From the NCBI RefSeq assembly GCF_053078305.1, contig NZ_CP166879.1: a DNA stretch of 64,000 bases. The stretch is one strand, 5' to 3'. This document shows, one piece after another, positions 10,753 through 33,831 of the stretch; position 1 is the stretch's first letter, and every line of letters begins with the position of its first letter. The notes under the pieces are model-generated. The model was not told the DNA's origin, did not search any database, and was given only the letters and a program-made list of their open reading frames with translations. The translations under genes and the position numbers were made by a program.

Positions 10753-12300
10753 CTACTTGCGTAGCGATAAAATTGCCCGTGCGGTTTCAGCACGGTTATA
10801 GATCTGCATTTTTTTTATTGCAGCATCCACATCTTCACCGCTTTTCTTATTCAGTTTAATCAGAAACTCAACAGGTAATAGCGAAGCTAAATTTTCAAAT
10901 TTTGATTCAGACCAAGTAATGGTTGCAACAGCCCCTTCAGTTCTCTTAATCATTAGTTTTTTAAGTAATTCTAAACGCTCTGGCTCAACAGTTATATAAC
11001 CAATCGGCAGGGTTAATGCACTATCAGAATTAGGTTGACCGTGGTATTGCACCAAAGCAATCACATCAGGAATTAAGAGGATCTCCAAACGATCAAATTT
11101 AGCCTCTGAAGTAAGGCCAATACCGGTAGGAAAACGACCTAAGTGCCGCTTACGCTCTTGACGTTTTTCACCTTCATCTGCACTTGAGTGTAAAAGCGAA
11201 ATGCGAGCAATCTTATCATCGGCATAATTGCCAAGTATATCGCCTAGAGCGCGAGTAAAACGCGAAAGTTGACTACCATTAGCTCCCCACAGTGGTACTT
11301 TACTGCTATACCACAGCGCTTTTGGAGCTGTTTTACCTATATAATCACGTAATGCATTATGCAACATACTAATGAACAGCTTAGAATTGTGCGGCAAATA
11401 AACAGCCCCTAACATGCCGGTAGTCAATGAAGTACCGTAGCCAGTTTTACGTTGTTCACGAGCCTCTATCCAGCCGGAATAGTTGAACTTATAACCATTA
11501 GCAAATTGTAACAACACTTTATCATTTGCTAGTTTACAGAAATCTTCACAGTCGATACCGAATTCATCTAGTTTATGTTCTCCCAAAAAATCTGCGATAT
11601 GAGCTTCCAGCTCGTTTGAAAGCGGCAGCCGGGTGTTACCTAAATATTCATAGGAACGAGTAAATTTCTGCGGCTCAATGCTCCCAGCAGAAACACCGTA
11701 GCTAACCTCTATCTCTATTGGGAGCTGCACCATCTCATGCGAACTACAGCCCATTATCTTATATAATTTAGTCCGTTGACGCTCATACTCGCTGTTGCGG
11801 CTGAGCAAAAGATGGTGCCGAAACTGGGAACTAAAAGCCTCTGTTACCGCAGCAGCATCTCCCCCGATCTGATGCCGCGGCAATAGCTCTGGCAGTCCAG
11901 AAGTAAAACGACGATTTGGTTGCGGTTTACATATCGAAAGAGTTAGTAGATCGAATGCAACTTCCTCCGTACATTCTTGATATTTAACTAAACTTGGCTT
12001 CCCACCATTATTAGCTGCATGCTTACGTAGGAATGAGCTAGCCTCAATATGCCCATCAGGATTAATGTTGATCAGTCTGTTAGCCAGCAACCCATCAAGC
12101 AATACCTCTCGCTCACGATCAGTTAGACCAAAGTAATTCTGTAACTCGCTGGGATAGAGTTGATCAAAAATCAGCAGCAAGCGACATGCAAACTGTTCAA
12201 TTCCAGGCATCAGTTTTTCAGTGGTCAAAGCGCAGTTGATCTTGTAACTACGCGCAGGTAGTAAAACGGTAATCAGATTACCCAGACGTGGTTCTGACAT
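10753..12300 (-). CDS. Hypothetical 515-aa protein, partner of the NERD-kinase-helicase gene; no motif recognised
   Basis: Long ORF in low-GC DNA; its ATG overlaps the upstream stop (TAATG) indicating translational coupling. No TM segments, P-loop, HKD, HEPN or other signature seen by eye. Confidence 0.7.
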   Translation of the reverse strand: MSEPRLGNLITVLLPARSYKINCALTTEKLMPGIEQFACRLLLIFDQLYPSELQNYFGLTDREREVLLDGLLANRLININPDGHIEASSFLRKHAANNGGKPSLVKYQECTEEVAFDLLTLSICKPQPNRRFTSGLPELLPRHQIGGDAAAVTEAFSSQFRHHLLLSRNSEYERQRTKLYKIMGCSSHEMVQLPIEIEVSYGVSAGSIEPQKFTRSYEYLGNTRLPLSNELEAHIADFLGEHKLDEFGIDCEDFCKLANDKVLLQFANGYKFNYSGWIEAREQRKTGYGTSLTTGMLGAVYLPHNSKLFISMLHNALRDYIGKTAPKALWYSSKVPLWGANGSQLSRFTRALGDILGNYADDKIARISLLHSSADEGEKRQERKRHLGRFPTGIGLTSEAKFDRLEILLIPDVIALVQYHGQPNSDSALTLPIGYITVEPERLELLKKLMIKRTEGAVATITWSESKFENLASLLPVEFLIKLNKKSGEDVDAAIKKMQIYNRAETARAILSLRK

Positions 12301-15300
12301 TAGTTGTTATCTCCAAGCAGACTTTGACCACACAGGATTTGGTAGTTGGGTTCATCTACTGCAACCTGTTTACTAATAAATTCATGAACGTTTCCAAGTG
12401 CTGAATCATTATTGGTCTTTGACCACATACGCCTTGCTCCCAGAATCAATAACCTTTCTTGAGCTCGCGAAATAGCAACGTTTATTCGCGGCGCGTCGCG
12501 CAGGAAACCTTGTAGTTTGTTGGGATTATCGCGAACCAGACTGAGGATAATTATCTTGTTTTCCTGGCCCTGATATGAATCAACGGTATCGATCTTGATC
12601 AAACCACGTAACGATGCAGCCCATTCAGCCCGACTGATAGCATTGTCAATTTCCTCTTTTTGCTGACGATACATTGTGATTATACCAATAGGATATGGCT
12701 GTTCTGTGGTAATAGTTTGCTCAAGCTGTGCAATGCAGCCATCACTCGACAATGACTGCAAAGCCTCTAGCAGTAGCCGGACTTCTCGTTGATTATAGTA
12801 ACGACCATTACCCTTATGTTCTTCTGCACCTGCTTCATTAGGGCTCGAACTATCGATCCAAGTAACAGTTTTGTTCCAAGGGATTGGTAACTTGGAATAC
12901 CAATCTGGCGAGACTTTCCTCGATGAATGCAGTTTACCGATATCTTGAGCGTAAAAGCACTCCGATACTAACTCGCCAATTGGTTCTACCATTCGATATT
13001 GAGTATCGAGTGTTACGCCGCCTGTTGCTTTAAAAGCACGTTCAAAATCAGACTCATAAAAGATCCCTTTCCCGAGTTCTAATTTCTTAGAGGCTAACTT
13101 AAGATGCTGTTGATGATAGAATGGTGGCAATTGTTTATGATCCCCTACCAACAGCACCCGCTTGCCTGATTGCAGCGCTACCATCAATTCAGCAGCTTGT
13201 GCTCGGCCAGCCTCATCAACTATTACCCAATCAAAGCTGGACTCAGCTAGTTCTAGTCGACGATTCCCAACACCAACAAGAGTTCCACAAACCAATCGCT
13301 TACTTTTGAACATAAATCGATCAAATCCAGCCTCGCCGCCGCGTAATACATCCATCCACTCTTGGCTCATTTCCAATAGCTGCATAAAACGTTCAAGGTT
13401 CTCTGGATTGTTATAATTGTATTGTATGGCAACTTGCTCAGCCAACTGTCTTATCAAGGTTTCATCATAGACAAGAGTTTTCAGCAAGCTGTCATCGAAT
13501 ATTGAGTTAATAATTTCTTGTGTTCGCAGTTTAAGCTGATTGCTTTGTTCTAATAATTCAGCCAGTCGCTCTTGATGACTAATACTACTACTCTTTATTT
13601 GTTCTACTTTATCCAGCTCACGGCTATATTGGCCATATGTCACCATCAAGGGATTCAGCGTACGATGTAACTGACATAACTGTTGGACTAATAATGGGGC
13701 CATCCCTAGGCGCTTTCCTAGGGAGCTAACTCGCAGATCATATTCACGGTGAAATTTATGCTGAATCTGTCGCTGAAGAGCTTTAGTTGCAACACTTAGC
13801 ATACCCTCATCAATCATAAGTTCATTACCAATACGTACTGTATCCAGTTCCATTCCTTTCGTATGGCAGAGCTCTCGAGCCTTGATGGCTACATTATCAA
13901 CAGAGGCATGGGATTGCCCGACCAAAAGAATGTTATTCACACCGCAATGTTGATACAGATAGTGAATAAATTTTGAAATAAATGTTGTTTTACCTGTTCC
14001 AGGTGGTCCCTGCAGAACTCCAACTGGTCCAAACTCGACCAACTGTTGAAATGCCATTAGCTGCTGTTCATTAAAACGTTGTCCAGGCTGATCATAAAGT
14101 GCGCGTAATGTCTCCGCGGATGGCCGCGGTTGCATTTGCTGCATGCAGGGTTTCTGGTGGTAATCAAAATACTGTGGCAGATGCTGGATCTCTGCTTTGT
14201 TTTCAATTACCCGTTGAAGGGCTCTTTGACGCAACTCTCTTGATGATTTGTCACGGATCGATTCCAATTGTAGCTGGCTGCCGCTACTAATTCGCTTACG
14301 AGCAGCATCAAAATCAAAGCGAATAGCCAATAGACTCGGCGTAGTCTCACTTAGCTGCAATTCCCCTAATTGCACTGATTCACGCTTATCTTTAATATAA
14401 ACAATGATCTTATCATCAAGTTCAAAGCTGAGGTCAGCACCGGATTCCGTAGTATATGGGTAGAGTAAGCAACCACTCGGTGATTCCTGAAAGTCAGTAG
14501 AGTCGATGTTGACTATATCTCGTAGGTCTACTTCTGTATCAGATAATGCCTGCCATAACTCAATTGGGCTTGACTCACTACTATCGAAGTCATCTTCATC
14601 CATCTCTTGATTAGGATTAGCTCGCTCAATGATGGCATCAATTACTGGCTCGAGGTTAAACAGTAGTTCAATAAAAGTATTACGCTGATTAAGTGAGCCA
14701 CGTTGTAATGAAAGTTGAGTATTAATTTTAGCCTGGGAATATTTACCAGCCTTTATACTTTCTTCGATCGATAATCCTTTTTCATACACTATTCTATTAA
14801 TAGTGCGATTATCAGGATCTAAGTCTATCAATAGCCGCTCTCCTAGGCCAGTGATGTAACAACGCAATTCATGCGCAAAGCGTGGGTTAGATGACCAGTT
14901 ACATTGAAAATAATAGATCCCATCATTTTGTTCTAGAAGCTTCACTTCTTGCGGCCAATCATCTGTGCCCCAGCAAACAGGAATTACCTTATCCTGTGAC
15001 TCAGACGCCACAACTTGATTAATCTCAGCTTGTTCCGGTGCTCGAATTGACTGCAGCAAAGGATCGAGCGCGATAGGTATACCGTCAACGGTTTGTTTTG
15101 CGCGTTCTAGCTCAGCCTGCACCAGTACTGGCATATCTTCACTAAATAGCTCCTCCACCATACGATATACTGCAAAGCAATCTCGCCCAAAAGCATCAGT
15201 ACTTTCGGGATTCTCTGGCTGGTAGCGATTATCTGCAGTTAATTCATCACTGAATTCAAGCAATCCAATCAGAGTAATTACTGTCTGCTCCCCGACTTGT

Positions 15301-17258
15301 ACCAGCAGTTTCTCTGGGCAAAGATCTCCATGAGGTAACTGCTTTTCATGAAAAGCATGAATGGTGTTGATCAACTTTTCCGCAATTGTAAAACGTTGGG
15401 ATTGTACTAACACGTTCTCAGCAATAAACTGTGACCACGGTAGGCCATCCACATACTCGCTCACTACATACAAGCCGCCTTGTCCTAATAGTCCATAGGA
15501 CTGCACCTTAGGAGTTGGCAGATTTATATGCGTAAGCTTATCGATCCGTTGCTTAAAAGCGTGGATACGGCGGTTAACACCAGGTTGTTGAGGGGTCAAA
15601 ATAACACCATCCCACAATTTTACCTGCAGAGCTTTCCCACCTTGTTCACAGTGATAACTGATGCTGCCAGTCGTAGCAATAGCAGCAAGAGCAGAGTAAA
15701 CCATAGACAACTGTTCAGGAAGTGGAGGAAACTCAATTAACACACCAACGCTGTTCATCCCTTCGCGAAAGAATTTGTTTTGCTTTAATTCTTGATAAAT
15801 CTGGTTAGCTTCATCAAATTCTTGGCTATGTTCCTTAGTAGCTGCATTAAACTCATTGAGCATTATGTCCGCACGTGGAAAGCGTTTACTTGGCTCAAGG
15901 TTAAGAGCTTGCTCAAACCAGCTATTTAGAATACCGCTAAAAGGATCAGTTAATGGAGCTCTCCATTCAGGCATCTGTCCAGGAGTCAGTAATGATTCAC
16001 CTGCAAAACAAATACGATAAGCAATTACAGCCAACATGAATACATCTAGGCGATAGGGCTCAACTGCTTCTTCAAAAGCATCTTCGGGCAAAATATATGG
16101 AGCACTTTGCAATGTCGGACGCAATGACTCTAGGCTATTATGTCCCTCCAGTGAGGCTGCGCCAAAGCCAGTAACGACAATGCTCTTCTGATCCCCTGCG
16201 TACCATAGATTGTGCGGGTCAATATCACAATGACTGATACCCAAGCTATGTAATTCCGAGAATGGAGCTAATAATGCACGAACGCGATCAATACGCTCAG
16301 ATTTACTCCATCCGTCAGCTTCGCTATCTAGAATCTCATCTAATCGGCTAAAACTACGGCGTAACTCATACAGCTCACGGGCATCATCAGTTATATCCTC
16401 CTCGGATAGTTCCCTTACAGCACGCAACATATAATCCTGCATAGTTGCGCTGCCATGACGAACTAGGCGACCGACTCGAGTCTCACGCAGAGCTATCTCA
16501 GCCCACAATGTTTGCATTGCGTTTGCTACACCCAAGGCATCAAAGTTCCACTGCCGTAGCAGACCTCTGTGTTGACTATTGTCTTTGTGGGTAGCCCTGA
16601 ATTCGTTGTAGACCATGTGAGGGTGACTAAAGAATGGCTTATCGTTCGCAAGATAACCGCTTTCTTTTAGTGGCAAAGGCCTGACTTTTGGTCCTTCAAA
16701 GAAGGACTTAATTATAGGTAATGCCTCATCAGAATTTGGTCGAGGCTTTCCCCCTTCAAAAAGATGAAAAAAGTTAGTGTGTTGCACCAGCTTTTCGTAA
16801 TTTTTTGGGTTACCTATAGTCAAGAATTCATCACGGGTATGAACATAGCGCCTCTCACTTAATGGCAAGTTTTCAGGACCAGCTGTGCCACACAGCACTA
16901 CATGAGCCTCAACATGCAAAAAGTAACCCAGCTTACGAGATAACTCTTCCTGCAACAAATCTTTTAGTCGCAGTGCATGCTCACGCTTGATCTGATAGGG
17001 ACTTTTGCCTCGTGACTTACCATTTTGCAGCCACTTCCCCCCTTCAAATGTGATGTTACCATTCCACTCTTTAAGCTCGACTAATAGCAGACGGTCAGCA
17101 GTAATAATTAGCATATCGATTTCCATCGACCCTTGGCTATCAGTAACAACTAAGCCAGCATAGCCAAACCAACTATCTGGTAACTGCTTAACCATCATAT
17201 CAACTGTTTTGGTTTCGCTGCGGTGCAGGCCAGCACCACCTACTATCTGATACTTCAC
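12300..17258 (-). CDS. 1652-aa multidomain protein: NERD (PD-(D/E)xK-like) domain, two protein-kinase-like domains, Upf1/DNA2-like SF1 helicase
   Basis: GTG start with GGAG about 9 nt upstream; NERD-like EIDMLIIT...LLVELKEW (aa 45-64); kinase-like catalytic loops HCDIDPHNLW (aa 343-352, then TGFGAA) and HGDLCPEKLLV (aa 643-653); helicase Walker A GPPGTGKTT (aa 1085-1093), Walker B VIVDEAGRA (aa 1345-1353), VGDHKQLPP, DSYQGQE, NVAISRAQERL. Confidence 0.75.
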   Translation of the reverse strand: MKYQIVGGAGLHRSETKTVDMMVKQLPDSWFGYAGLVVTDSQGSMEIDMLIITADRLLLVELKEWNGNITFEGGKWLQNGKSRGKSPYQIKREHALRLKDLLQEELSRKLGYFLHVEAHVVLCGTAGPENLPLSERRYVHTRDEFLTIGNPKNYEKLVQHTNFFHLFEGGKPRPNSDEALPIIKSFFEGPKVRPLPLKESGYLANDKPFFSHPHMVYNEFRATHKDNSQHRGLLRQWNFDALGVANAMQTLWAEIALRETRVGRLVRHGSATMQDYMLRAVRELSEEDITDDARELYELRRSFSRLDEILDSEADGWSKSERIDRVRALLAPFSELHSLGISHCDIDPHNLWYAGDQKSIVVTGFGAASLEGHNSLESLRPTLQSAPYILPEDAFEEAVEPYRLDVFMLAVIAYRICFAGESLLTPGQMPEWRAPLTDPFSGILNSWFEQALNLEPSKRFPRADIMLNEFNAATKEHSQEFDEANQIYQELKQNKFFREGMNSVGVLIEFPPLPEQLSMVYSALAAIATTGSISYHCEQGGKALQVKLWDGVILTPQQPGVNRRIHAFKQRIDKLTHINLPTPKVQSYGLLGQGGLYVVSEYVDGLPWSQFIAENVLVQSQRFTIAEKLINTIHAFHEKQLPHGDLCPEKLLVQVGEQTVITLIGLLEFSDELTADNRYQPENPESTDAFGRDCFAVYRMVEELFSEDMPVLVQAELERAKQTVDGIPIALDPLLQSIRAPEQAEINQVVASESQDKVIPVCWGTDDWPQEVKLLEQNDGIYYFQCNWSSNPRFAHELRCYITGLGERLLIDLDPDNRTINRIVYEKGLSIEESIKAGKYSQAKINTQLSLQRGSLNQRNTFIELLFNLEPVIDAIIERANPNQEMDEDDFDSSESSPIELWQALSDTEVDLRDIVNIDSTDFQESPSGCLLYPYTTESGADLSFELDDKIIVYIKDKRESVQLGELQLSETTPSLLAIRFDFDAARKRISSGSQLQLESIRDKSSRELRQRALQRVIENKAEIQHLPQYFDYHQKPCMQQMQPRPSAETLRALYDQPGQRFNEQQLMAFQQLVEFGPVGVLQGPPGTGKTTFISKFIHYLYQHCGVNNILLVGQSHASVDNVAIKARELCHTKGMELDTVRIGNELMIDEGMLSVATKALQRQIQHKFHREYDLRVSSLGKRLGMAPLLVQQLCQLHRTLNPLMVTYGQYSRELDKVEQIKSSSISHQERLAELLEQSNQLKLRTQEIINSIFDDSLLKTLVYDETLIRQLAEQVAIQYNYNNPENLERFMQLLEMSQEWMDVLRGGEAGFDRFMFKSKRLVCGTLVGVGNRRLELAESSFDWVIVDEAGRAQAAELMVALQSGKRVLLVGDHKQLPPFYHQQHLKLASKKLELGKGIFYESDFERAFKATGGVTLDTQYRMVEPIGELVSECFYAQDIGKLHSSRKVSPDWYSKLPIPWNKTVTWIDSSSPNEAGAEEHKGNGRYYNQREVRLLLEALQSLSSDGCIAQLEQTITTEQPYPIGIITMYRQQKEEIDNAISRAEWAASLRGLIKIDTVDSYQGQENKIIILSLVRDNPNKLQGFLRDAPRINVAISRAQERLLILGARRMWSKTNNDSALGNVHEFISKQVAVDEPNYQILCGQSLLGDNN

Positions 17259-17468
17259 GTTTTCTCCTGCACCACTAAATTTTTGTTGGTGGTAGTCCAG
17301 TAAAAATGGATGTAGTTATCTAAGACAGCGCATAGATTGTGCCTGCCTAACCCTAAAAAGTGTAATTATGAAAAGTAACGCTAGAAATTCTATACCGTTC
17401 GCAAAGAGAACACTTTTCAAAGATATATCATCATCTTGAACATGTCACTATAATGGTGAATCCATAAG

Positions 17469-17630
17469 ATGCGAACACCACATCTTGTGCCACTCAGCAA
17501 ACAGGCTGTAGCCATACTGATAAAACTTCAGACATGGGCAGTTGAAAATGGTCTGGTCTTTACGGGAGCACATGACCCGCGTAAACCAATCAGCGAAAAC
17601 ACCGTAAATAAGGCCCTTAGGTGCCCTTGA
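17469..17630 (+). pseudogene. Tyrosine-recombinase (phage integrase) C-terminal fragment, about 53 codons
   Basis: Translates to MRTPHLVPLSKQAVAILIKLQTWAVENGLVFTGAHDPRKPISENTVNKALRCP*, resembling the integrase segment around the catalytic region; no N-terminal part present. Confidence 0.35.
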
Positions 17631-17725
17631 ACCACTATATCCAGACAGCCGTTGAGCTTAAGTTAACGTTACCGAGTGACGTTGATATTCCCTCGGTGAG
17701 AGATAACCAAGGCACCATGAGGATG

Positions 17726-18353
17726 CTATTCGTTATAGTGTTCGAACGCCTCCGCAAGGTTTTTTACTGCCGTTAACACGTCCGGTTTAGGTATGATACT
17801 GATGTAATCGCTCTTCATCGTTTTCACGAACCGTTCTCTCATTCCATTACTCTGAGGGCTACTGACTGCCGTCGTGCAGAGCTCCAGATTCAACTCTCTG
17901 GCGAACTGCCGTGTTTCATGAGTTGTATAAGCCGAACCGTTATCGGTCAGCCACTGGATGGGCCATCCCGGTCTATCGCCAAAGCGTTTTTCTATCGCTC
18001 CTGACATGACATCCTGCACCGTTGCTTTGCCATAACCTCCCGTGCTTGCGGCCCAGTCTATGGATTCAAGATCGCAACAGTCCAGTGCGAACGTGACACG
18101 CAGTTTTTCGTCATCATCACAACCGAACTCAAAGCCATCGGCACACCAGCGCGGGTCGCTTTCCTTCACCGATATTCGGGCCTTTATGTTCCCTCTGCGG
18201 TCGTGAAGGTTTGTCATGTAATAACAACAGGTTATTCTCGCTCATTATTCGATAAACGCGATTTGCATTCACGAACTGCAGTCCTTCGTTAAGACTGCCG
18301 TCTGAGAATAGCCCAGACACGACGATAGCCATCGAATCGCTGAACAGCGTCAT
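17726..18353 (-). pseudogene. IS2-like (IS3 family) transposase OrfB remnant, truncated and frameshifted
   Basis: 163-aa ORF contains [10 protein letters not shown]...WLTDNGS...AEAFEHYNE resembling IS2 InsD; the upstream 74-aa ORF in another frame carries the adjacent NANRVYRIM segment. Confidence 0.6.
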
Positions 18354-18459
18354 TCGGCAGGCGATAAAGAAGGTGTCGTTACGGGGAAGTCATCTTCACA
18401 GAGATTTTCAGTCAGTTAGCATTACCGACATTCATTCACCAACTTACCGGAGATAATCA

Positions 18460-18789
18460 ATGTCAAAACCCCGATGGACCATTGAACAGAAAAGGCAGCA
18501 CGTTGCTGCCTGGCGCGCCAGTGGTCTTACACGTCAGCAATACTGTGAACTCAACGATATTCCCTTCACATCACTTCGCGAATGGCCGCAGGATGTCGCA
18601 AAAGCTGAACGCCGGGCAAATGAACCGACCGTTCTTCCCGTTCATATTGCGCCACCACTGCATGCTGATGTACCACAGCCCGTCACGAATGAGCCAGTCA
18701 CGCTCTTCCTTCCCGGCGGAGTACGGATGTGCTGTCAGCCGTCACAACTTACCGATGTCTTCAGGGCGCTCAAATATGCTCAGTCCTGA
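18460..18789 (+). CDS. IS66-family element B, OrfA-like (HTH), 109 aa
   Basis: Small HTH-like ORF immediately upstream of an IS66 TnpB-like ORF in the typical overlapping arrangement. Confidence 0.5.
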   Translation: MSKPRWTIEQKRQHVAAWRASGLTRQQYCELNDIPFTSLREWPQDVAKAERRANEPTVLPVHIAPPLHADVPQPVTNEPVTLFLPGGVRMCCQPSQLTDVFRALKYAQS

Positions 18790-19168
18790 TAATGTCTTCA
18801 TCGCGATTAAACCTGTTGACATGCGCCGGGGCATCGACACACTGACGCAGTATATACAGGATGAACTCCGGTCGACATGGCATGAGGGAGCCGCCTTCGT
18901 CTTTGTTAACAAAGTCCGTTCGCGTATCAAAGTTCTCCGGTGGGATAAACACGGGGTGTGGTTGTGTACCCGCCGTCTGCACAAAGGCAGCTTCCGCTGG
19001 CCACGTGCAAATGATGCTGCCTGGCACCTCACTCCCGACGAGTTTAACTGGCTGATTGCCGGTGTTGACTGGCAGCAGGTTAAGGGACATGACCTGACGA
19101 AATGGGGCTGGCAGAATGAACCTGAACTGCGCCCTGAAAACACGCAAAATACACTGCTAACTCAGTGA
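18776..19168 (+). CDS. IS66-family element B, OrfB (TnpB-like), about 130 aa
   Basis: MLSPDNVFIAIKPVDMRRGIDTL... typical IS66 OrfB; ATG overlaps the orfA stop (ATGCTCAGTCCTGA). The 228-aa ORF in the track is an upstream extension of this frame. Confidence 0.65.
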   Translation: MLSPDNVFIAIKPVDMRRGIDTLTQYIQDELRSTWHEGAAFVFVNKVRSRIKVLRWDKHGVWLCTRRLHKGSFRWPRANDAAWHLTPDEFNWLIAGVDWQQVKGHDLTKWGWQNEPELRPENTQNTLLTQ

Positions 19169-19295
19169 AAAATAATGAATATCCGTATCCGGAGTGGTAT
19201 ACTCCCCTGTATGGATATCTCCGCTCTCAACACCACGAATGACATCGAAAAACTGCGTGCTATGGGTAAGCGTCAACGGAGCACCGTATTGACGC

Positions 19296-20909
19296 TTATT
19301 TATTGGTGAGTACTACGTTCCATGGCAGGAGTTCATCAACTCGGTTGGAAGGCCATTCTGGCAGTACGCTCAGGATATGGCGCAGATACGCTTCCGGATC
19401 GATACCGTTCAGACGGCAGGTGCCGATCAGCCCGTACAACAGTGCTCCACGCTCGCCGCCGTGATCGCTGCCAAAGAACATAAAGTTTTTCTTTCCGAGA
19501 CAGACTGCACGAAGCGCTCTTTCCGCAGCATTATTATCCGCCTCCGCCAGACCGTCATCACTGTAATAACAGAGGGCATCCCACTGATTCAGTACATAGC
19601 TGAACGCTTCGCCCAGTCTGGATTTTTTCGACAGCGTACCATTCTTCTCCACCATCCATTCATGCAGTGACGTCAGTAACACTTTGCTTCGCTGCTGCCT
19701 GACGGCAAGACGCTCTGACTCCGGTAATCCCCGTATTTCATCCTCGATGGCGTACAGTTCACTGATTCGCTTCAGGGCTTCTTCTGCCGTCGCACTTTTG
19801 CTGCTGATGTATACATCGTGGATTTTTCGCCGGGCATGGGCCCAGCACGCAACTTCTGTCAGTGCACCACCTTCACGTTCTGCACTGAACAGCCGATCGT
19901 AACCGCTGAACGCATCCGCCTGCAGGATACCCCGGAAGGGACGAAGGTGTTGTACCGGATGTTTTCCCTGCCTGTCTGGTGAGTAGGCGAACCAGACCGC
20001 CGGTGGCTCTGATGAGCCCGCATTCCGGTCATCCCGGACATACGTCCAGATGCGTCCTGTTTTTGCCTTTTTTCTGCCCGCTGCCAGCACTTTTACTGGT
20101 GTGTCGTCAGTGTGAACCTTGCGGGTGTTCATCACGTAACGGTACAGGGTATCATTCAGCAGAGTCATTAACTGACAACATGCGTCAACCCAGTTGGAGA
20201 GTAATGCCCGGCTCAGTTCGATGCCCTGGCGGGCAAAGATTTCACTCTGACGATACAGTGGCAGGTGTTCGCAGTATTTTCCCGTTAACACGCGGGCAAG
20301 TAATCCGGAGCCCGCGATGCCGCGCTCTATCGGGCGGGACGGCGCTGGCGCTTCAACTATACAGTCACATTTTGTACAGGCTTTTTTTACCCGAACAGTG
20401 CGGATCACTTTCAGGGCGCTACTCACCAGTTCCAGCTGCTCAGCACTGACTTCCCCCAGATAATCCAGCTCACTGCCACACTCCGGGCAACAACTTTCTT
20501 CAGGCTCCAGACGGTGTATTTCACGGGGAAGATGTGCCGGTAACGGACGACGATGACGTGACTGTCGCAACTGGCGGGGAACCTGCGGGTCATCCTCACG
20601 CCCACTGTAACGATCGCTTTCCTGTTCGCGTTGTTTCAGTTGGGCCTCAGCCTGTTCAACCTCACGCTGCAGTTTTTCAGAACGGGTACCGAACAACATC
20701 CGGCGCAGTTTTTCTATCTGGGCCCTCAGATGTTCTATTTCCCGCTCCTCCTCTTCGATCTTTTCCTCGGCACGTGCCAGTGCAGAGCGCAGGAAGGCCT
20801 CCGTCTCTTCAACCAGACTCAGTTGCTGATCTTTCTGACGGAGGGCTTCAGCCTGCTCAGAGAGCAGCCTTTCCAGCTCAGTGATACGAATGAGGTATTT
20901 CCGACTCAT
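19296..20909 (-). CDS. IS66-family transposase OrfC, 537 aa (element A)
   Basis: Coiled-coil N-terminus, CxxC zinc-finger region, DDE-type core typical of IS66 TnpC. Confidence 0.8.
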   Translation of the reverse strand: MSRKYLIRITELERLLSEQAEALRQKDQQLSLVEETEAFLRSALARAEEKIEEEEREIEHLRAQIEKLRRMLFGTRSEKLQREVEQAEAQLKQREQESDRYSGREDDPQVPRQLRQSRHRRPLPAHLPREIHRLEPEESCCPECGSELDYLGEVSAEQLELVSSALKVIRTVRVKKACTKCDCIVEAPAPSRPIERGIAGSGLLARVLTGKYCEHLPLYRQSEIFARQGIELSRALLSNWVDACCQLMTLLNDTLYRYVMNTRKVHTDDTPVKVLAAGRKKAKTGRIWTYVRDDRNAGSSEPPAVWFAYSPDRQGKHPVQHLRPFRGILQADAFSGYDRLFSAEREGGALTEVACWAHARRKIHDVYISSKSATAEEALKRISELYAIEDEIRGLPESERLAVRQQRSKVLLTSLHEWMVEKNGTLSKKSRLGEAFSYVLNQWDALCYYSDDGLAEADNNAAERALRAVCLGKKNFMFFGSDHGGERGALLYGLIGTCRLNGIDPEAYLRHILSVLPEWPSNRVDELLPWNVVLTNK

Positions 20910-20939
20910 GACCGTTTTTATAATCCGGCCATGACATTT

Positions 20940-21290
20940 TTACAACATTGTCAGTGCATTAAGGCGGGATGTTTTGGGCTGACGCCAGTCCAGTTTATCG
21001 AGGAGCATTGCCAGCTGCGAGCGGGTAATGGATACCTTACCGTCACGCACCGCAGGCCAGATAAACTGGCCTTCCTCCAGACGTTTGGTGAACAGGCACA
21101 GACCATCAGCATCAGCCCACAGAATTTTAATCGTGTCACCCCGTCGGCCGCGAAAGATAAACAGGTGACCGGAGAAGGGGTTCTCATCCAGCACATGTTG
21201 TACCTGTTCTCCCAGACCGTTGAAGGATTTACGCATATCAGTAACGCCGGCAACCAGCCAGATTCGAGTGCCTGATGGGAGCGAGATCAT
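20940..21290 (-). CDS. IS66 OrfB (TnpB), 116 aa (element A)
   Basis: MISLPSGTRIWLVAGVTDMRKSFNGL... characteristic IS66 OrfB. Confidence 0.8.
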   Translation of the reverse strand: MISLPSGTRIWLVAGVTDMRKSFNGLGEQVQHVLDENPFSGHLFIFRGRRGDTIKILWADADGLCLFTKRLEEGQFIWPAVRDGKVSITRSQLAMLLDKLDWRQPKTSRLNALTML

Positions 21291-21712
21291 CGTCCCCTCC
21301 CGGTCAGTTCACGGATCAACACCGTGAGCAGCTCTGGTGAAGGATTTTCCAGCGTCATGTTACCGTGGCGGAACTCAACTTTACAGGAACTGGCACTGAC
21401 TGTGCTTTGTGAAGGAGTGGATAAAAGCGGAGTAAGAGCCGCCACAGGCTCTTTCTGCTCATCAGGCGTTATCTCAACAGGTAATAATTCAACGCCAGCG
21501 CCAGAAGAGGTTGTTACCGGAAGACGCCGCGATATACGCCCTTCGTTCTGCCAGAGCCTGAGCCATTTGAACAGGAGGTTATCATTGATATCGTGTTCCC
21601 GGGCAATACGGGCAACAGAGGCTCCTGGTTGTGAAGCCAGTTTAACCATTTGAAGTTTAAACTCATTTGAAAATGATCTGCGGGGTTCTGAGGATAATAT
21701 TTTCTGTTCCAT
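21287..21712 (-). CDS. IS66 OrfA, 141 aa (element A)
   Basis: HTH-containing OrfA (NEFKLQMVKL...); overlaps orfB by 4 bp. Confidence 0.75.
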   Translation of the reverse strand: MEQKILSSEPRRSFSNEFKLQMVKLASQPGASVARIAREHDINDNLLFKWLRLWQNEGRISRRLPVTTSSGAGVELLPVEITPDEQKEPVAALTPLLSTPSQSTVSASSCKVEFRHGNMTLENPSPELLTVLIRELTGRGR

Positions 21713-21802
21713 AACAGGTGTCCACTAGTTGAAAAGGTGGGCACCTACGTTACCAATACTGGCTTAATGGCTACATACGGCGGTCAGTTTACGCTTACTG
21801 CT

Positions 21803-23320
21803 ATGGCACTTACCATGGTACAAAAAGTCATGTCGGAGAATGCCGAAAAAGAGCGGGAATTACTGGAGAAAAGCCGGCGCATCCAGCTTCTGGAAGAAAT
21901 GCTGAAACTGGTTCGTCAACAGCGCTTCGGTAAAAAATGTGAAACGCTGGCTGGTATGCAACGCTCCCTGTTCGAAGAGGATGTTGATGTCGATATCGCC
22001 GCGCTTACCGCACATCTGGATAAACTGCTCCCGCAATCCCCTGAAGAAGACGAAAAAGCGTCCCGTTCACGCCCGATACGCAAACCCTTACCGGCTCATC
22101 TTCCACGGGTGGAAAAAATTATCCAGCCGGACACTGACCATTGCCCTGAATGTGACGAGCCGCTGCACTATATCCGTGATGCGGTGAGTGAAAAGCTGGA
22201 GTATATTCCCGTTCACTTCGTGGTGAACCGTTATGTCCGTCCGCAATACAGTTGTCCCTGTTGCCAGAAGGTGTTCAGCGGTGAAATGCCGGCACATATC
22301 CTCCCGAAAAGTGCCGTTGAGCCATCAGTCATCGCACAGGTGATCATCAATAAATACGGTGACCACCTGCCTCTGTATCGCCAGCAGCACATTTTCTCCC
22401 GAATGGGGGTGGAGCTCCCCGTCAGTACAATGGCGGATAGGGTCGGTGTTGCTGGCGCTGCACTGGCCCCGCTGGCAAAATTGTTACGCCACGAGCTTCT
22501 GACACGGGATGTTATTCATGCCGATGAAACGTCCCTGAGGCTCCCTGATACCCGGAAAGGCGGTAAATCCTGCTCCGGCTGGCTGTGGGCTTACGTCAGC
22601 GGAGAAAGAAGCAGTCCGCCGGTCGTCTGTTTTGACTCGCAGACCGGACGGGCCCTCAGATATCCTGAGGCCTGGCTGCAGGGCTGGTGTGGCGGTACGC
22701 TGGTGAGTGACGGATACAGCGTGTACAAATCTCTGGCGGATAATGACCCCGGTATTACATCTGCCTGTTGCTGGAGCCACGCAAGGCGCGGTTTCGCAAA
22801 TCTGTATAAGGCCAGCAGGGAGCCCCGTGCAGCCATGGCGCTGAGAAAAATCGCGGGTCTTTATCGCATTGAGAAGTTCATCCGTGAACGTCCTGTGGAA
22901 AAAATACGGCAATGGCGACAACGGTATTCCCGGCCGATAGTGAATGACCTGTTTGCCTGGCCTGAAGAGCAGGAGCCGTGCTGTCCGCCCGACGGACCAC
23001 TAAACAAAGCGATTAATTATATCCTGAACCGGCGCGATGAACTGAGCTGCTTCCTGAGTGACGGAGCCGTGCCCCTGGACAACAATATCTGCGAGCGTGC
23101 TATCCGCCCGGTCGTTATGGGACGAAAGGCCTGGTTGTTCGCCGGTTCACTGATGGCCGGAAACCGCGCGGCACAGATAATGAGCCTTCTGGAAACGGCA
23201 AAACGTAATGGTCTGGAGCCACATGCCTGGCTGACAGACGTCCTGGCGCGTCTGCCGGAATGGCCAGAGGAGCGACTGGCAGAGTTGCTGCCTCTTGAGG
23301 GATTTACCTTCTCCGGGTGA
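21803..23320 (+). CDS. IS66-family transposase OrfC (element B), about 505 aa; start codon lies inside the duplicated target of element A
   Basis: IS66 TnpC-like sequence; the track's longer ORF (from 21737) reads through the element A inverted repeat, so the first ATG after the repeat (21803) is preferred. Confidence 0.65.
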   Translation: MALTMVQKVMSENAEKERELLEKSRRIQLLEEMLKLVRQQRFGKKCETLAGMQRSLFEEDVDVDIAALTAHLDKLLPQSPEEDEKASRSRPIRKPLPAHLPRVEKIIQPDTDHCPECDEPLHYIRDAVSEKLEYIPVHFVVNRYVRPQYSCPCCQKVFSGEMPAHILPKSAVEPSVIAQVIINKYGDHLPLYRQQHIFSRMGVELPVSTMADRVGVAGAALAPLAKLLRHELLTRDVIHADETSLRLPDTRKGGKSCSGWLWAYVSGERSSPPVVCFDSQTGRALRYPEAWLQGWCGGTLVSDGYSVYKSLADNDPGITSACCWSHARRGFANLYKASREPRAAMALRKIAGLYRIEKFIRERPVEKIRQWRQRYSRPIVNDLFAWPEEQEPCCPPDGPLNKAINYILNRRDELSCFLSDGAVPLDNNICERAIRPVVMGRKAWLFAGSLMAGNRAAQIMSLLETAKRNGLEPHAWLTDVLARLPEWPEERLAELLPLEGFTFSG

Positions 23321-23921
23321 GTGATACCTGCCGTCAGGTGTTCGTGCACCGGGCCATAACCTGCAGTCGGGAGTTGAACTCCTGACGACAGGAAATGAGC
23401 CAGACCAGCAACCACACGGGCTGACAGCGAATAAGAACCTGAATCAGCCCGGAGTCATTCCCGGGTCAGTACATCATCACCTGCCATTAATCCCCGAGTC
23501 AGTACTTCGCGGCCTGACGCGATCACCCTACTCAGTACTTCAGAGCCCGCCTCCGGTACCTGCCTGGCGATCGCCCCTGTGCAACAAAATAAATCAACCG
23601 TTATCAGACCACGATCGTTCGTATGCGCCGCCGATGACGCGCGCCTGAAAAACGCGTCAATATGAGTTCCCCGGAAGCTTACGGAAAAGTTGAAGATCAT
23701 GCTGTTTATTTTCATCTGTATTGTCACCAGTCAGCATATGCCCCGGTCCCCGATTAGGTTGCGTGTTTTCATGGAAGGAGAGCGCCCAATAACCTCTATT
23801 GAGATTGGAGTTACTCACCGATCACTTCCACAGTAATACGCACATTACCATCATTCCTGATGGCATTGACCAGGAACATAACTACCAATAAAAATTCCCC
23901 AAAGTTGAAGTTACCGTAAGC

Positions 23922-24197
23922 CTATTTTTTATCTTCTTTTCTTTCTTGTAACTTTGCTTTTATCCAAATACCAATCCCTGCTAACATACCAGCCCCTCCC
24001 CCCACCTTTAAAGAATAAATAATATCTGCCCTCCAATCAAAAAATAAAACTTGAGTTTTAGAAAAAACTATCAGTCTACCAAGAATAGTACCTAACATTG
24101 CCATAAAAAAGATGCAAGCTATGCAGCGCATTATTAGTATGATAAGAATGTAAAAGTTGACACTCTTATTTATTTTTAATGGATTTATCAGCTTCAT
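23922..24197 (-). CDS. cdiI: CdiI-like immunity protein (small membrane protein), 91 aa
   Basis: Overlaps the cdiA 3' end by 32 bp; hydrophobic helices; position typical of CDI immunity genes. Function inferred from context. Confidence 0.55.
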   Translation of the reverse strand: MKLINPLKINKSVNFYILIILIMRCIACIFFMAMLGTILGRLIVFSKTQVLFFDWRADIIYSLKVGGGAGMLAGIGIWIKAKLQERKEDKK

Positions 24198-27100
24198 CTA
24201 GTGTTCCTTTTGTTACATTCCCGATAGCTTCACCAGTAATTGTTCCCCCAATATTACCAATAATATCAGATGTTCCCTCTTTGACAGTAGAGCCCATTGA
24301 CCCCGAGATGACTTTCCCTATACCGCCACCAAATACTGAACCTAATCCTGTCCCAATAACTGAATTTGTCGGATCCTCGCCTTTAATACTACTACCAATT
24401 GCCGCGCCGCTCATGTTGATAGGAGTTGAGACGATGATGCCTTTACCGGTTGTAGCTGCAGCTGTCACCCCAGCCATTATCGCATCCACATAACTGAAAG
24501 GACCTTTTCCAGCAAGCTGAGCAGCTGAGTTTACGCTGATACCAATTGCTGCATTAGTCGCCATACCTTTCACTGTTAACCCCAGTACGCTTCCTCCAAA
24601 CAACAAAGGAGCATCACCAATACTTGCATTAGATTTATGATACCCCCAGGTATTCATAATGCTTTGAGCCTTTGCCATTGCTTCAGTATCAGGGTTACGT
24701 TTTATATAGTCCTGTCCTGACAGTAACCCGGTAACAAGCTCCTGTGCCACCGCTGTACCGTACTCCTTTTCCATTTCTGAAGCATATACACGCAAGTAAG
24801 CTGCCAGTTCAGCACGTTCTGCGCTGTTTAATTGTGAAGGATCTTTATTAAATTTGGATACCAGAGCATCACTACGTTTATCTGCATTTTCCAGCTTAAT
24901 CAGCTCATTAGCAGTGGCTAATGTCTTATCGCCGTTCCTGATTTTCTCAATGGCTTTATCCAGTTTGTCAGAAGATGTCGCTCCCAGAAAGTTATTCTCA
25001 ACAGTCGTCTTACCTGACTGTGCGCCGGCTACCGCTGAAGCCCCCGAGTTGCCCACCAGACCACCGGCCAGGCCGGCAGCAACCGTTGCCAGTGTCGAGA
25101 CCGTCTGCTTCTCTGTCTCGCTCAGTTCACTCACCGGCTTACCGTACATCTGTGTGGCTATCATTCCCACCACCTCGCCGGTGGCAGCCCCTGCGGCACC
25201 GGCAAGGGCATTATTTCCCTGTGCCACCGCCAGCGCGGCATTCACAACCGCATGGGCGGCCACACGCCCCGCACCGTCCGGGGTGTTATTTTTGATTATT
25301 TCTGCAATGTACGGCGCAGCACCACCTGCCAGGGCTGCACTCAGATTACCACCGGCCAGTCCCTGTACCGCTGCCGTTGCAGCCTGTATCGCCTGCTGGT
25401 ATTTGCCTCCCGTTCCAAAACCGGAGGCTGCCATACCGTTATTGTAGGCCCGCTGTGCCACATCCTGTTCCGTGAACGGTTTTCCTGCTGCCTCAAGCTC
25501 CGCACGGGCCTGATTCAGTGCTGCCGGGTCCCGCTTCGCTTTCTCACCGGCTATCTGTCCTTCCGTTCTGGCAATATCTGCCACCTGGTTACCAATCTCA
25601 CCAATGAGTTGCGCCTGCTGCAGTCGCTGCTGCTCTTTTTCCCTGTCAAAGATGGGGGACAGCGTCTGATTTGCATGTGCTGCGTCACGGTTCAGGTCTG
25701 CCACATCCTGTTTCTGGCTCTGCGTATCCCGGATGGTGATATTCCCGGCAGACACTGCCGACTGCGTGGTACTGTCCGCATGGCCTTCATGATTTGCACC
25801 GACCAGCAGATTGTTTGCCATGTTCCCCAGGAAATTTCCAGCAACACTGCCACCGGTACTGAGCCCTGTACTCTGATGTTCCGTTTTAAAGTCGGCCCGG
25901 TTTTCAATGTCACTGAAGCCCAGTGTGCCGGTATCCAGCCTGTTTTTATCTGCCGTTGCCGTGGACGCAATCACCGCACCGTTCAGTTGCGTATGCTGTC
26001 CGGTGGTGACATCAAACCCGCCCCTGCCGGCAAAAATCCCCGTCTGCTCCTGTACACTGTCGTAGTTACTGTGCATTTTATCCCGGCTGAGGTTCACACT
26101 CGCCGAACCGCTCATGGACCCGAAAATGAAGCTGCCTCCGGCGCTGGCATTCTGCTGCTTACTGTCATAACGGTCACTGTCCTGCTCACTGGTCAGTGTC
26201 AGATGACGACCGGCATCCACTTTCACCGTTTCACCGCCAGCCTGCGCGCCGGTAAGCGTGGTGTCCCGCCCGCTGATAATGGTCAGCCGGTTTCCCGCAT
26301 CCACCGTGGTTTCTGTATGGGTGGTACCGTTGCCTTTTTCACTGCCCTTACCCTGGTTTGCGCTGGCTGAAACACTGATACCCCAGCCTCCGGAGCCCAC
26401 ACCAACACCGACACCCACGCTGCCACCACTGGATGTGTTCTTTCCTTCCAGCTTTGACGTGTTTTCTGCTGATACCAGATTCACGTCACGGTTTGCCTGC
26501 AGCAGAACGTTGTTCCCGGCCTTTATCTGACTGCCCTGTATCGTCAGGTCACCATCCACGCCCTTCACGCCGGAGCCGGTGGCCTGAATACTGAGGTTAT
26601 TACCTGCGGTCAGTGTACTGCCCTTCGCCACCGTCTGCTCTGACTGCTGTTCTGATTTCGAAGACTGGCTGCCGTAAGAGAGGCTGATGCCCACCGTGTT
26701 ATTATTTCCGGCATCGGCTCCCTGCGCGTCTGCCAGTCGTCCGGCCTGCACGGCCTGAGCCCCCGAGAGCGCGGCCTTCACCCCCTGCAGGGCTTCAAGC
26801 CGGCTGTTTCCGGCAGATTTCGCCGCCTGTACGGTCTCCACCGTCGTATTCAGGGCGCTGCCCGCTGTGCCGGACAGGGCAAGCGTCAGACCGGAGGTTT
26901 TCTGCTCCACCGTATGTGTCTGTACATGCTGGTCTGTGGCGGCGGTAATGCTGACCTCCTTACCGCTGAGTGCCATGTCCCTGCCGGCAATCAGGTCAGA
27001 GCCGTTGACGGTCAACCGGTTACCTGCCTGAAGGGAAACATCACCGTGAACACTCCCCACCGTGCTGCCTTTCTGTGTGGTGTCTGTTGCGGTGTCCGTG

Positions 27101-30100
27101 ACTTTCAGACTCTGGCTGCCCATGCTGAATCCCACACCTCCGGAGCTCATCAGCCCAGATTTTTTCTCCTGTTTCAGGTGTGTTTCACGGTTGCTTTCTG
27201 TCAGCGTGCCGATACTCAGGTCATTTCCGGCAGCCAGGGAGACACGGTTATCCCCGGCCACACTGCTGCCCGTGACGTTCAGATTATGTCCGGCACTGAT
27301 ACTGACCGTATCCCCGTTCAGTTCACTGCCCGTCATGGTCCGGCGGTCAGTGACATCATGCGTGGTTGTGGTGGTTTTCGATAACATCCCGCTGCTGCCG
27401 GTCACTTTATGGTATTCATCCAGCGAGCGGGTATTCTGTGCACCGGTCAGCGTCACGTCATGACCTGCCATCAGGGCCAGGCCTTTCTGAGCTGACAGCG
27501 ATGCCGCCTGTGACGTCATATCCCGTCCGGCGGTCAGCGTGACATCACCGTTACCGGCAAGCGTGCTGCCCGTACTCTGTGTGACGCCCTGCGACAGACG
27601 ATTATTTTTATCCCAGATAATATTGTCCTGCGCGGAAGTGGTCACAGTGGAAAGCGTCATATCCCTGCCCGCACTGAGTTGCGTCAGGCTGTCCTTACCC
27701 TGATTCACCACCGTTGCAGCCGTCAGATTCATATCCCGTCCGGCCTGCAGCACCAGTCTTCCCTGGTCGTTCTGCACATACACGCCGGCCACACTGTCGA
27801 TACTGGTACGTTCAAAATGGTTCTGTCCGGCGTCGCGCTGTGCCGTACGGGTGGTGGTGGTCAGACTGATATCCCGTCCGGCCATCGCCAGCAGGCTGTC
27901 CGTGGCCTGCAGCAGCCCGCCGGTACTGTTAATATCCGTCCGGGCCGTCAGGCTGACATTTGCTCCCTGAATGGAGCCGGCCTGGTTGTGAATGTTTTCT
28001 GCACTGAGCTGCACGGTCTGCTTCCCGGCCAGTTTACCGCTGTTAAACAGGTCACCATCCAGCTTCATCACCATGTCCCTGCCGGCAATCAGCGCACCGG
28101 CGCTGTTCACATCACCGGGTTTTACACGGGCATACACCTGAGGTACCTGAACCGTCTGCGTGCTGCCGTCCGGCAGTGTCACCGTGGTGTTAACCAGCCA
28201 GACAATATCACCGGTCAGTAACGCCATCTGCTCAGCAGTCAGCGCCACACCTGGTGTCAGGTTGTATTGCTTACCAAATGCAATACCCGCATCCATTAAC
28301 GCCTTAAACTGCTCTTCATCATTACTGTATCCGTCCAGGTACCGTTGCCCGGTCAGAGCGACAACCTGCTCACGAATCAGACGCTGTTCGTAAAAACCAT
28401 CCCCCAGGCGTTTGAGCATGTTATCCCCGTTCTGAGAAAACGCCTTCTGCATGTAATCACTGCCCAGCCACGTCTTCTGGTTCGTAAAACGCGGGTCCGT
28501 TTCAACCAGATATGGCACATTCACTGCCGGGTTTGTTTTAAACAGGCTGCTGTCCGGCAGACGGGTATCCGGCCCGGCAACATGGATACTGCCCTGAGGT
28601 GCGCTGACTTCAAACTGCTGCCCCGGCAACAGAATGACCGGTTCACCGGCAGACACCACCGGGCGAAGCGGTATCCGGTCAGTAGCGGCTACTGCCGCAT
28701 CCACATTTCCGGCCTGTCCTGTCTGTACATCCGTTCCCTGTGGCTTCAGAGGAGAAAGCGTGACCTGGCTGCCCTGAATCTGTCCGTGGCTGGTGAGCTC
28801 TCCCGGCTTCAGCGTAATGCTCTGAATTACAGTGGGCGGAGTGTACTGAGAGGTTTTCTCCCCCTGCTTATCCTTTCCTTTTTTCCTGATACGGTAATAA
28901 TACGTGGATGTTCCTGAGTCCGTAACATGCCGCTCGCCACTGACACTGACATTTTCCACGCTTCCTGACGGAATGGTCAGCAGGCCGCCTGCAACAACCT
29001 GACTCTTATCATTAAGCAGTTTGTCTGCCACAATCGTCATGCCGGCACCGGACAGAATTTTTCCCGGGTCGGAGTCTTTTACCCGGGTTTCTTCCACGGT
29101 ACGGGTGTAATCATACTGCGTGAATTTATCTCTGGCGCCTTCCGGTGTATGCAGTTTTTTCAGTGAGTTACTGGAATCGTTATCCACATAAACGCCCGGT
29201 TCACCGGCGCTCCAGCGTTTATCTGAGCCGCTGAGCTGATACTCAGTCACCTTTTCCGTGGAAACCACCACGCGCTCCGTGGTGAAATGGTCATTGACGT
29301 TATTGATTTGTCCGGCACTCAGTACCAGATATCCGGCGGCTTCAATAGTGGCACTGTGATTATTCAGTACACCGGCTTTCCCCGTGGCGGCACCATTCGC
29401 ATCCAGCATGCCACCAGTATGCATATCACCTGCACTGTAAATCAGGCTGTGCGTCCGGTTATTCAGGGTCTGTACCCCTAAGTCCACACGCTCACGCCCG
29501 GCCAGCGTCGCCGCCACGCCATTTTCTTCCAGATTATTAAATGTGGCAGCGCTGACACCAACAGCATCGCCGTAGATTCGCCCGGTACCGGAATTCGTCA
29601 GGGTGTTCGCCTGAAGATGCGTATATTTCCCGTCAATCAGCCCACGGTTCAGCAGTGTGTCCGTCACGTTAAGCCAGGTCTGCCCGGCACTGATTTCACC
29701 TTTCTCTGTGTTTTCAAGGCGGATGCTGTTCAGGTCAAGCCGGCTGCCTGCCAGCAGGCTGCCGGTATTAGAGACATCGCCATTAACGGAAAGCGTAAGG
29801 TTTCCGTTCGCAATAGTCTGACCACTGTTGCTGAACGTTGTGTTACTTTTCAGCGTCATATCGCCCAGCGAAAGCAGTTTCCCGTCACCACCGAGCTGAC
29901 CGGCATCCACAGATACTGACTGCCCGGCCTTAACCACGCCGTCACGGTTCGAAAACGCCAGCTGACGGCCACTGACAGACAATGTCGCGCCGGAAGAGAG
30001 GACGCCGTCATTATTACTGAGCGTCCTGTCTGCCATAACCGTAAGCGCCCTGTCTGCCAGAATACTGCCCTCCTGGTTATCAAGGTCCTGCGTCGTGATG

Positions 30101-33279: not shown

Positions 33280-33294
33280 TCTGATAAACCTGAC

Positions 33295-33822: not shown

Positions 33823-33831
33823 GAAACTTTC

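Follow-up and report, generated by a model that had tools for sequence, protein, structure and literature searches.

In the window analysed here (the whole stretch of DNA, 64 kb in length), the first two genes of an IS66-family element are separated from the third, its transposase gene, by another insertion sequence (IS), and the question is how this arrangement arose. The first-pass annotation had read it as an IS66-family insertion nested in a second IS66-family transposase gene. The empty site present in two other genomes was decisive in favor of that reading. The best explanation, held with near certainty, is that IS682 transposed into an ISEc49-like IS66-family element located in an E. 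coli chromosomal pathogenicity island. The inserted element (element A), its host (element B) and their component parts are listed below.

18373..23682, plus strand: element B, ISEc49-like IS66-family IS, 5,310 bp as found; ends taken from independent ISEc49 copies
18373..18399, plus strand: left terminal inverted repeat of element B, GTGTCGTTACGGGGAAGTCATCTTCAC; terminus also in L002 and L004-L007
18460..18789, plus strand: element B tnpA, 109 aa; NCBIfam IS66 TnpA NF047593
18776..19168, plus strand: element B tnpB, 130 aa; Pfam TnpB_IS66 (PF05717) 1e-34, NCBIfam NF033819
19211..19265, plus strand: 5' fragment of element B tnpC, codons 1-18 and one base, cut by the insertion
19258..19265, no strand: left copy of the IS682 target duplication, TGCTATGG; single copy at the empty site
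19266..21798, minus strand: element A, complete IS682 (IS66 family), 2,533 bp; matched end to end by RefSeq IS682 loci at 99.9% identity
19296..20909, minus strand: IS682 tnpC, DDE transposase, 537 aa; Pfam DDE_Tnp_IS66 (PF03050) 2.8e-95, NF033517
20940..21290, minus strand: IS682 tnpB, 116 aa; Pfam TnpB_IS66 (PF05717) 7.8e-37, NF033819
21287..21712, minus strand: IS682 tnpA, 141 aa; Pfam HTH_Tnp_1, NCBIfam IS66-like TnpA NF047595
21799..21806, no strand: right copy of the IS682 target duplication, TGCTATGG
21807..23320, plus strand: 3' part of element B tnpC, starting at the second base of codon 19 and including the stop codon, with all four IS66 transposase domains
22387..23250 (approximate limits), plus strand: mosaic patch in element B tnpC, from sliding-window identity; the empty-site locus L008 is homologous up to 22386 and no further
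23656..23682, minus strand: right terminal inverted repeat of element B, ...GAGTTCCCCGGAAGCTTAC

The inserted element and the empty site

Along all of its 2,533 bp, element A is 99.9% identical to loci that carry the label 'IS66-like element IS682 family transposase'; the names IS682 and ISEc49 rest on RefSeq/PGAP labels. Its minus-strand genes had been recognized earlier, and the three reading frames (19296-20909, 20940-21290 and 21287-21712) are intact. The matches to NF033517, NF033819 and NF047595 all exceed the NCBIfam cut-offs, and Pfam found the further domains zf-IS66, LZ_Tnp_IS66 and DDE_Tnp_IS66_C in TnpC. The TnpC protein is identical to that of the copy in strain GPEC1176 and TnpB is identical to WP_000624701.1 in locus L001. 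The termini form an imperfect inverted repeat starting with GTAAGCG, in which 20 of 24 positions match. Element A thus has the gene trio, the terminal repeats and the 8-bp duplication of an IS66-family member; the duplication is the reported signature of IS66 (PMC6778807, citing Machida 1984). At three other independent sites IS682 likewise measures 2,533 bp, with the same termini and 8-bp duplications, and an additional copy of 2,532 bp has an 8-bp duplication of its own. None of its three reading frames is broken and both of its ends are complete, and the IS682 copy in the window is presumably still mobile.

The GTAAGCG and CGCTTAC ends at 19266 and 21798, and the direct repeats flanking them, were all recovered as first described. 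Both copies of the duplication TGCTATGG (19258-19265 and 21799-21806) are perfect. The motif occurs only three times in the 64 kb, which overall is the level expected by chance. Three GTAAGCG...CGCTTAC pairs lie 1.5-3.5 kb apart in the window, and identical abutting 8-mers were found in this pair only; the chance of such a coincidence is 1.5e-5 per pair.

In E. coli strains 222 and SC516 this locus is present but lacks IS682. Both strains are collinear with window positions 15758-19265 and 21799-22386 at 99.8-99.9%, and TGCTATGG is present once, which demonstrates simple transposition.

The possibility was considered that a chimeric or collapsed contig at IS66-family repeats had produced an apparent nest, a concern already raised in the first-pass annotation. 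Such repeats are common in E. coli, where 20,069 places match IS682, and the right junction is unique to the window. However, a misassembly would not yield a complete IS, a perfect 8-bp duplication and a reading frame that is restored by removal of the insert. Moreover, elements A and B have no detectable similarity at the DNA level by which an assembler could be misled (blastn gave 0 matches, and identity between the two TnpC proteins is 33%), and the identical left junction recurs in GPEC1176, an independent assembly with a 21.6 kb flank that is 99.99% identical. An artefact is therefore extremely improbable. Neither the right junction nor the junction of the right end of element B with the cdi locus had a match beyond the window in 5,426 complete E. 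coli genomes, so that independent replication covers the left junction only. As a lineage marker the insertion is useful: its left junction is shared with one of the 5,426 complete genomes and its right junction with none.

The host element and its interrupted transposase gene

The earlier description lacked the outer ends of element B. They were set at 18373 (GTGTCGTTACGG...) and 23682 (...GGAAGCTTAC) by aligning independent ISEc49 copies from three insertion sites, each with its own 8-bp duplication. The terminal repeats match at 19 of 27 positions and the same termini bound ISEc49 at the three independent sites. Without IS682, and with the duplication reduced to a single copy, element B is 2,769 bp long. 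The coordinates first given for orfA and orfB (18460-19168) were right. TnpA is identical to the ISEc49 TnpA of locus L004 (WP_000042910.1), and TnpB to that of the empty-site locus L008. Excision of IS682 in silico, which joins 19211-19265 to 21807-23320, restores an intact TnpC reading frame of 522 aa. The reconstructed protein matches PF03050 (1.2e-88), three accessory domains and NF033517. The gene trio with its signatures and the terminal inverted repeats place element B in the IS66 family.

The start of orfC had been placed at 21803 and the insertion exactly at the start codon; the 3' end at 23320 was upheld, the start was not. The host tnpC begins with the ATG at 19211, 42 nt past the tnpB stop, and this spacing recurs in ISEc49 copies, whose tnpC is annotated by PGAP, as well as in the empty-site locus. 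A diverged relative in the island of Shiga-toxigenic E. coli (STEC) has the same MDIS... start with an in-frame stop upstream, and has CTG (Leu) at the position of the ATG in the duplication. The duplication spans tnpC nucleotides 48-55 and its ATG is codon 18 (Met18).

IS682 inserted 47 nucleotides into the host tnpC, and TGCTATGG was duplicated in the manner of IS66-family transposases. As a result, 2.5 kb of DNA in the opposite orientation lies between the remaining tnpC and the upstream part of the element, which comprises the promoter, tnpA, tnpB and tnpC codons 1-18. With tnpC split in this way, element B should no longer be able to make a full transposase, and loss of autonomy would follow. 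In all likelihood it is now a defunct, non-autonomous relic.

Element B could still be functional if translation from the in-frame ATG within the duplication gave a TnpC lacking residues 1-17. The ATG at 21803 is in frame (the mechanical open reading frame extends from 21737 to 23320) and all of the Pfam domains are located beyond residue 47. However, a scan of the adjacent IS682 end found no outward-facing promoter-like site, inspection by eye revealed no Shine-Dalgarno sequence ahead of 21803, the coupling of the gene to tnpA and tnpB is lost, and Met18 is not conserved, being Leu in the relative. Residual function of this kind is very unlikely.

No 8-bp target duplication of its own was found around element B, the flanks being TAAAGAAG and GGAAAAGT. 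Its absence bears on the history of this copy and not on its family membership. For IS66, mismatched flanks have been reasoned to be a trace of recombination between two IS copies (PMC6778807). The tnpC gene is itself a mosaic: the patch at about 22387-23250 shares about 98-100% identity with the IS66 element in the tellurite island of STEC, and only 60-75% with canonical ISEc49. Together, the mismatched flanks and the mosaic tnpC suggest earlier recombination between related IS66 copies. A switch of identity at the IS682 insertion, as recombination between two IS682 copies would leave, was rejected; identity to ISEc49 stays at 98-100% through the insertion point and changes only at about 22387.

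Because of the patch, TnpC is only 82% identical to that of ISEc49, and DNA identity overall is about 90%. ISfinder convention asks for roughly 95% DNA identity or more for one name. At the isoform level, judged by these identities, element B is not ISEc49 sensu stricto and is best named an ISEc49-like mosaic. An intact element B was sought in complete E. coli genomes and none was found, the best full-length matches being about 90% identical.

Possible composite structure and target choice

The 5.3-kb structure might instead be a single composite element, mobile as a whole, as the first-pass annotation had allowed. Both terminal repeats of element B are kept, and a similar IS682-in-IS66 nest is widespread among STEC genomes. 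Nevertheless, an orthologous site without IS682 exists, canonical ISEc49 copies lack IS682, and in the STEC nest the position of IS682 and the duplication (GAGAAAGA) are different, so that it represents a separate insertion event. The exact nest of the window occurs at one locus only, with no target duplication around element B, and an 8-kb query for it elsewhere matched only the different STEC-island nest. Movement as a single unit is hardly credible, and transposition of IS682 into a resident ISEc49-like element remains the preferred reading.

Whether IS682 prefers ISEc49-type or related IS66-family targets was also considered, as opposed to a random hit that was kept as harmless. Three independent IS682 insertions are found in this IS lineage at three different positions: tnpC codon 18 in the window, mid-tnpC in the STEC island (831 nt into an annotated pseudogene), and, in strain 2014C-4135, a site within the inverted repeat that lies 18 bp from the terminus. 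Two of the three cases came from searches that included the host element, so this sample is biased. A less biased sample, from searches that used the IS682 terminus only, gave no sign of targeting: an IS66 element was found at one of six distinct sites (L013); the other five had no IS66 sequence in their flanks (L014, whose flank was judged by annotation only; L016 and L020, which share one site; L017; L018; L019). A terminus-anchored scan of species-representative genomes gave five loci at four distinct sites, none in an IS66 element, which is too little data for claiming a preference. Furthermore, the four fully characterized duplications (TGCTATGG, GAGAAAGA, TGAAGATG and TGCTAAAT) have no clear common motif, and insertions in other ISs are neutral and tend to build up in IS-rich islands. 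Targeting is unlikely, if somewhat less so than the alternatives above; if true, IS66-into-IS66 targeting would be a modest addition to knowledge of target choice in this family.

Comparison with known IS66-family elements

The nest is an ordinary event for a pathogenicity island; IS682 is already catalogued and no new element type is involved. Papers that name IS682 or ISEc49 merely list them as detected elements. Beyond annotation the locus has little import: it provides bounds and names for two ISs, a corrected start for the interrupted transposase gene, and a mosaic relic.

Compared with the IS682 of RefSeq/PGAP, element A has the same three genes, GTAAGCG termini and 8-bp duplication, and nothing material differs; the STEC-island copy differs from it by 4 nucleotides. 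Element B shares its termini and its entire TnpA sequence with ISEc49, its TnpB differs at 3 positions, and about 70% of its length is 98-100% identical to ISEc49 DNA. Unlike ISEc49, it carries an approximately 850-bp tnpC patch from another IS66 element, is interrupted, and lacks a target duplication.

A close parallel is the nest in the STEC tellurite-resistance island (for example in E. coli O103 RM8385 and O157:H7), where an inverted IS682 likewise lies in the tnpC of an ISEc49-related element. That nest also carries an 8-bp duplication, but it is GAGAAAGA, 831 nt into tnpC, a target that is uninterrupted in element B of the window (22602-22609), and its host is only 55-80% identical to element B in the left half.

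Transposition of IS679 reportedly needs all three genes, as found by Han et al. in 2001. The experimentally studied IS66 and IS679 have in common with the elements of the window the tnpA-tnpB-tnpC order, terminal repeats and 8-bp duplication, although they are different elements.

The IS682 insertion and its empty site

Element A, a minus-strand copy of IS682 (IS66 family), lies at 19266-21798 within element B, an ISEc49-like member of the same family on the plus strand (18373-23682; tnpA 18460-18789, tnpB 18776-19168). The 8-bp target duplication TGCTATGG (19258-19265 and 21799-21806) described in the first-pass annotation was confirmed, as were the ends, GTAAGCG from 19266 and its complement CGCTTAC up to 21798. 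The termini form an imperfect inverted repeat in which 20 of the 24 outermost bases match. GTAAGCG...CGCTTAC pairs 1.5-3.5 kb apart occur three times in the window, and only the 19266/21798 pair is abutted by identical 8-mers, an event with a chance probability of 1.5e-5 per pair. The signature reported for IS66 is an 8-bp duplication (PMC6778807, citing Machida 1984).

The 2,533-bp segment matched loci labelled 'IS66-like element IS682 family transposase', accompanied by tnpA and tnpB, with 99.9% identity over 100% of its length. It contains three intact ORFs.

Gene products of element A (minus strand)
TnpA, 141 aa: HTH_Tnp_1 helix-turn-helix domain; NF047595
TnpB, 116 aa: TnpB_IS66, 7.8e-37; NF033819
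TnpC, 537 aa: DDE_Tnp_IS66, 2.8e-95; zf-IS66, LZ_Tnp_IS66 and DDE_Tnp_IS66_C; NCBIfam NF033517

The TnpC is the same, with no differences, as that of the copy in E. coli GPEC1176, while the copy within the STEC tellurite-island element, an IS66 element related to ISEc49, differs from element A by four DNA changes. At three independent sites elsewhere IS682 measures 2,533 bp and has its own 8-bp duplications (GAGAAAGA, TGAAGATG and TGCTAAAT); one further copy, of 2,532 bp, is flanked by GTAAATAA. The copy in the window is intact and presumably mobile.

A search with the right junction returned genomes with a 100% match to window 21799-21949, the match beginning precisely where the duplicated 8-mer does. 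Strains 222 and SC516 have the same locus without IS682, including the 1,652-aa AAA-domain gene, the integrase fragment, the IS3-family fragment and tnpA and tnpB of element B, and are collinear with window 15758-19265 (99.9%) and 21799-22386 (99.8%). The overlap between these alignments is exactly 8 bp, which makes TGCTATGG single-copy in both strains. This locus is the pre-insertion state, and it bears out the proposed insertion of one IS66-family element into another.

The possibility was considered that the nest was created by misassembly through repeats. This is not credible because the identical left junction recurs in one of 5,426 complete genomes, that of GPEC1176 (99.99% identical to window 1-21583), and no DNA similarity between elements A and B was detectable by blastn; their TnpC proteins are 33% identical.

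The interrupted element B

The insertion had been placed exactly at the ATG that opens the host orfC (tnpC). However, tnpC starts upstream, at an in-frame ATG at 19211, 42 nt past the tnpB stop. When 19211-19265 is joined to 21807-23320, the reading frame stays open for 522 aa and encodes all four IS66 transposase domains, and PGAP annotates the start at the equivalent position in the ISEc49 copies, the STEC element and the empty-site locus. The ISEc49 copies are too alike in DNA to test whether the first codons are coding, and the diverged STEC-island element was used instead. Its tnpC has the same MDIS... start with an in-frame stop seven codons upstream, the changes in its first 20 codons are synonymous and conservative, and it has CTG (Leu) at the ATG formerly taken as the start. 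The duplication thus corresponds to tnpC nucleotides 48-55, and its ATG to Met18.

With IS682 in place, most of tnpC is cut off from its first 18 codons, tnpA, tnpB and a promoter-like site in the left end of element B (18395-18422). The IS682 end adjoining the residual tnpC yielded no promoter-like site facing outward, and no ribosome-binding site was seen before 21803. Taken together, these features indicate that element B is most likely non-autonomous. The window contains no other full IS66-family transposase gene.

The outer ends of element B, missing from the first-pass annotation, were set at 18373 (GTGTCGTTACGG...) and 23682 (...GGAAGCTTAC) by comparison with aligned ISEc49 copies from three different sites that have their own 8-bp duplications (GCATTAAC, GTATGAAG and CTTCATTC). 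Without its insert the element is 2,769 bp long, and the two arms of its inverted repeat agree at 19 of 27 positions. Identity to ISEc49 is 98-100% except in a patch of tnpC at ~22387-23250, which is ~98-100% identical to the STEC tellurite-island element but only 60-75% to ISEc49; because of this patch the TnpC is only 82% identical to that of ISEc49. Homology with the empty-site locus stops at 22386; beyond this point that locus follows canonical ISEc49 until it is truncated beside type VI secretion gene fragments. The patch also spans 22602-22609, where the STEC element carries its own IS682. Element B is a mosaic, and the patch provides evidence that IS66-family elements have undergone recombination or gene conversion with one another.

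No target duplication flanks element B (TAAAGAAG vs. GGAAAAGT). A single IS66 copy is left with mismatched flanks when two copies recombine (PMC6778807), and such flanks together with the mosaic patch suggest that element B obtained its right part from a related element by recombination. As the right-end junction occurs in no other complete genome, this origin is one that we infer only.

Flanking loci and the GPEC1176 deletion

Loci around the IS cluster
3010-3123, minus: 38-aa C-terminal remnant of an IS66-family transposase, 60% identical to IS682 TnpC, adjoining an IS600 copy downstream of iha
10753-17258, minus: two-gene Mokosh-type anti-phage defence system directly left of the cluster; MkoA-like protein (1,652 aa; NERD, kinase-like and SF1-helicase domains; PADLOC MkoA, 1,305 bits) and MkoB-like protein (515 aa; MkoB match, 1e-61), named in RefSeq only 'AAA domain-containing protein' and 'hypothetical protein'
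~17460-17620: tyrosine-recombinase fragment, left of element B
17726-18217: IS3-family integrase-core fragment (rve domain), directly left of element B
23922-35571, minus: contact-dependent inhibition locus right of the cluster; cdiB (579 aa; ShlB/POTRA), cdiC-like HlyC-family acyltransferase (175 aa), cdiA (3,037 aa; TPS, haemagglutinin repeats, PT-VENN) and a putative immunity ORF (91 aa; in the immunity-gene position, 239 bp from the right end of element B)

The left end of element B adjoins a degraded IS3-family element, an arrangement common to 222, SC516 and GPEC1176. In GPEC1176, the closest complete genome, a 13.9-kb deletion corresponding to window 21584-35438 begins within IS682, 215 bp short of its end, and extends through the tnpC of element B, the putative immunity ORF, cdiA and the cdiC-like gene into cdiB, most of which is lost. 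Only short imperfect microhomology (GGTTATC vs. GGATATC) is seen at the joint. The window thus holds the more complete form, which is probably the ancestral one. Furthermore, GPEC1176 has an IS2 (28024-29252 of its locus L003) that is absent from the window at ~41310-41314, where a 5-bp alignment overlap fits the 5-bp duplication of IS2.

Comparison with other IS682 insertions

A comparable nest is widespread among STEC and some pig strains, with IS682 831 nt into tnpC and the duplication GAGAAAGA. The window has GAGAAAGA uninterrupted at 22602-22609, indicating that the two nests are independent events. In strain 2014C-4135 (L015, NZ_CP027310.1 3136500-3146000) an ISEc49-like element has IS682 within its terminal inverted repeat, 18 bp from the tip, and three IS66-family elements (ISEc23, ISEc49-like and IS682) stand head to tail. 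The ISEc49-like element there has a frameshifted tnpC, and 200 bp further along is a 68-bp remnant of an IS682 end.

Three independent nests in one IS lineage could be explained if IS682 prefers IS66-family targets. However, two of the three came from queries containing the host element, and searches based on the IS682 terminus alone placed only one of six distinct sites in an IS66 element (L014 being judged by annotation only and four scan sites by flank searches). Neutral persistence of insertions in IS-rich islands fits the pattern equally well, and a target preference is considered very improbable.

A 2,533-bp IS682/ISEc23-type copy in NZ_CP027457.1 (L012) shares its right flank with another locus (L013), differs on the left (CDI immunity gene) and is without a target duplication; it looks like a product of recombination between two copies. 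The exact IS682 terminus was also present in contigs filed as metagenome-assembled genomes of Segatella copri, Clostridia, Lachnospiraceae and Bacillota (L016, L017, L018 and L020), which are probably enterobacterial and mis-binned rather than signs of genuine hosts.

The nest in the window is chiefly useful for correcting the annotation and as a marker of lineage. It consists of two catalogued insertion sequences, one inside the other, an ordinary arrangement already known in kind.
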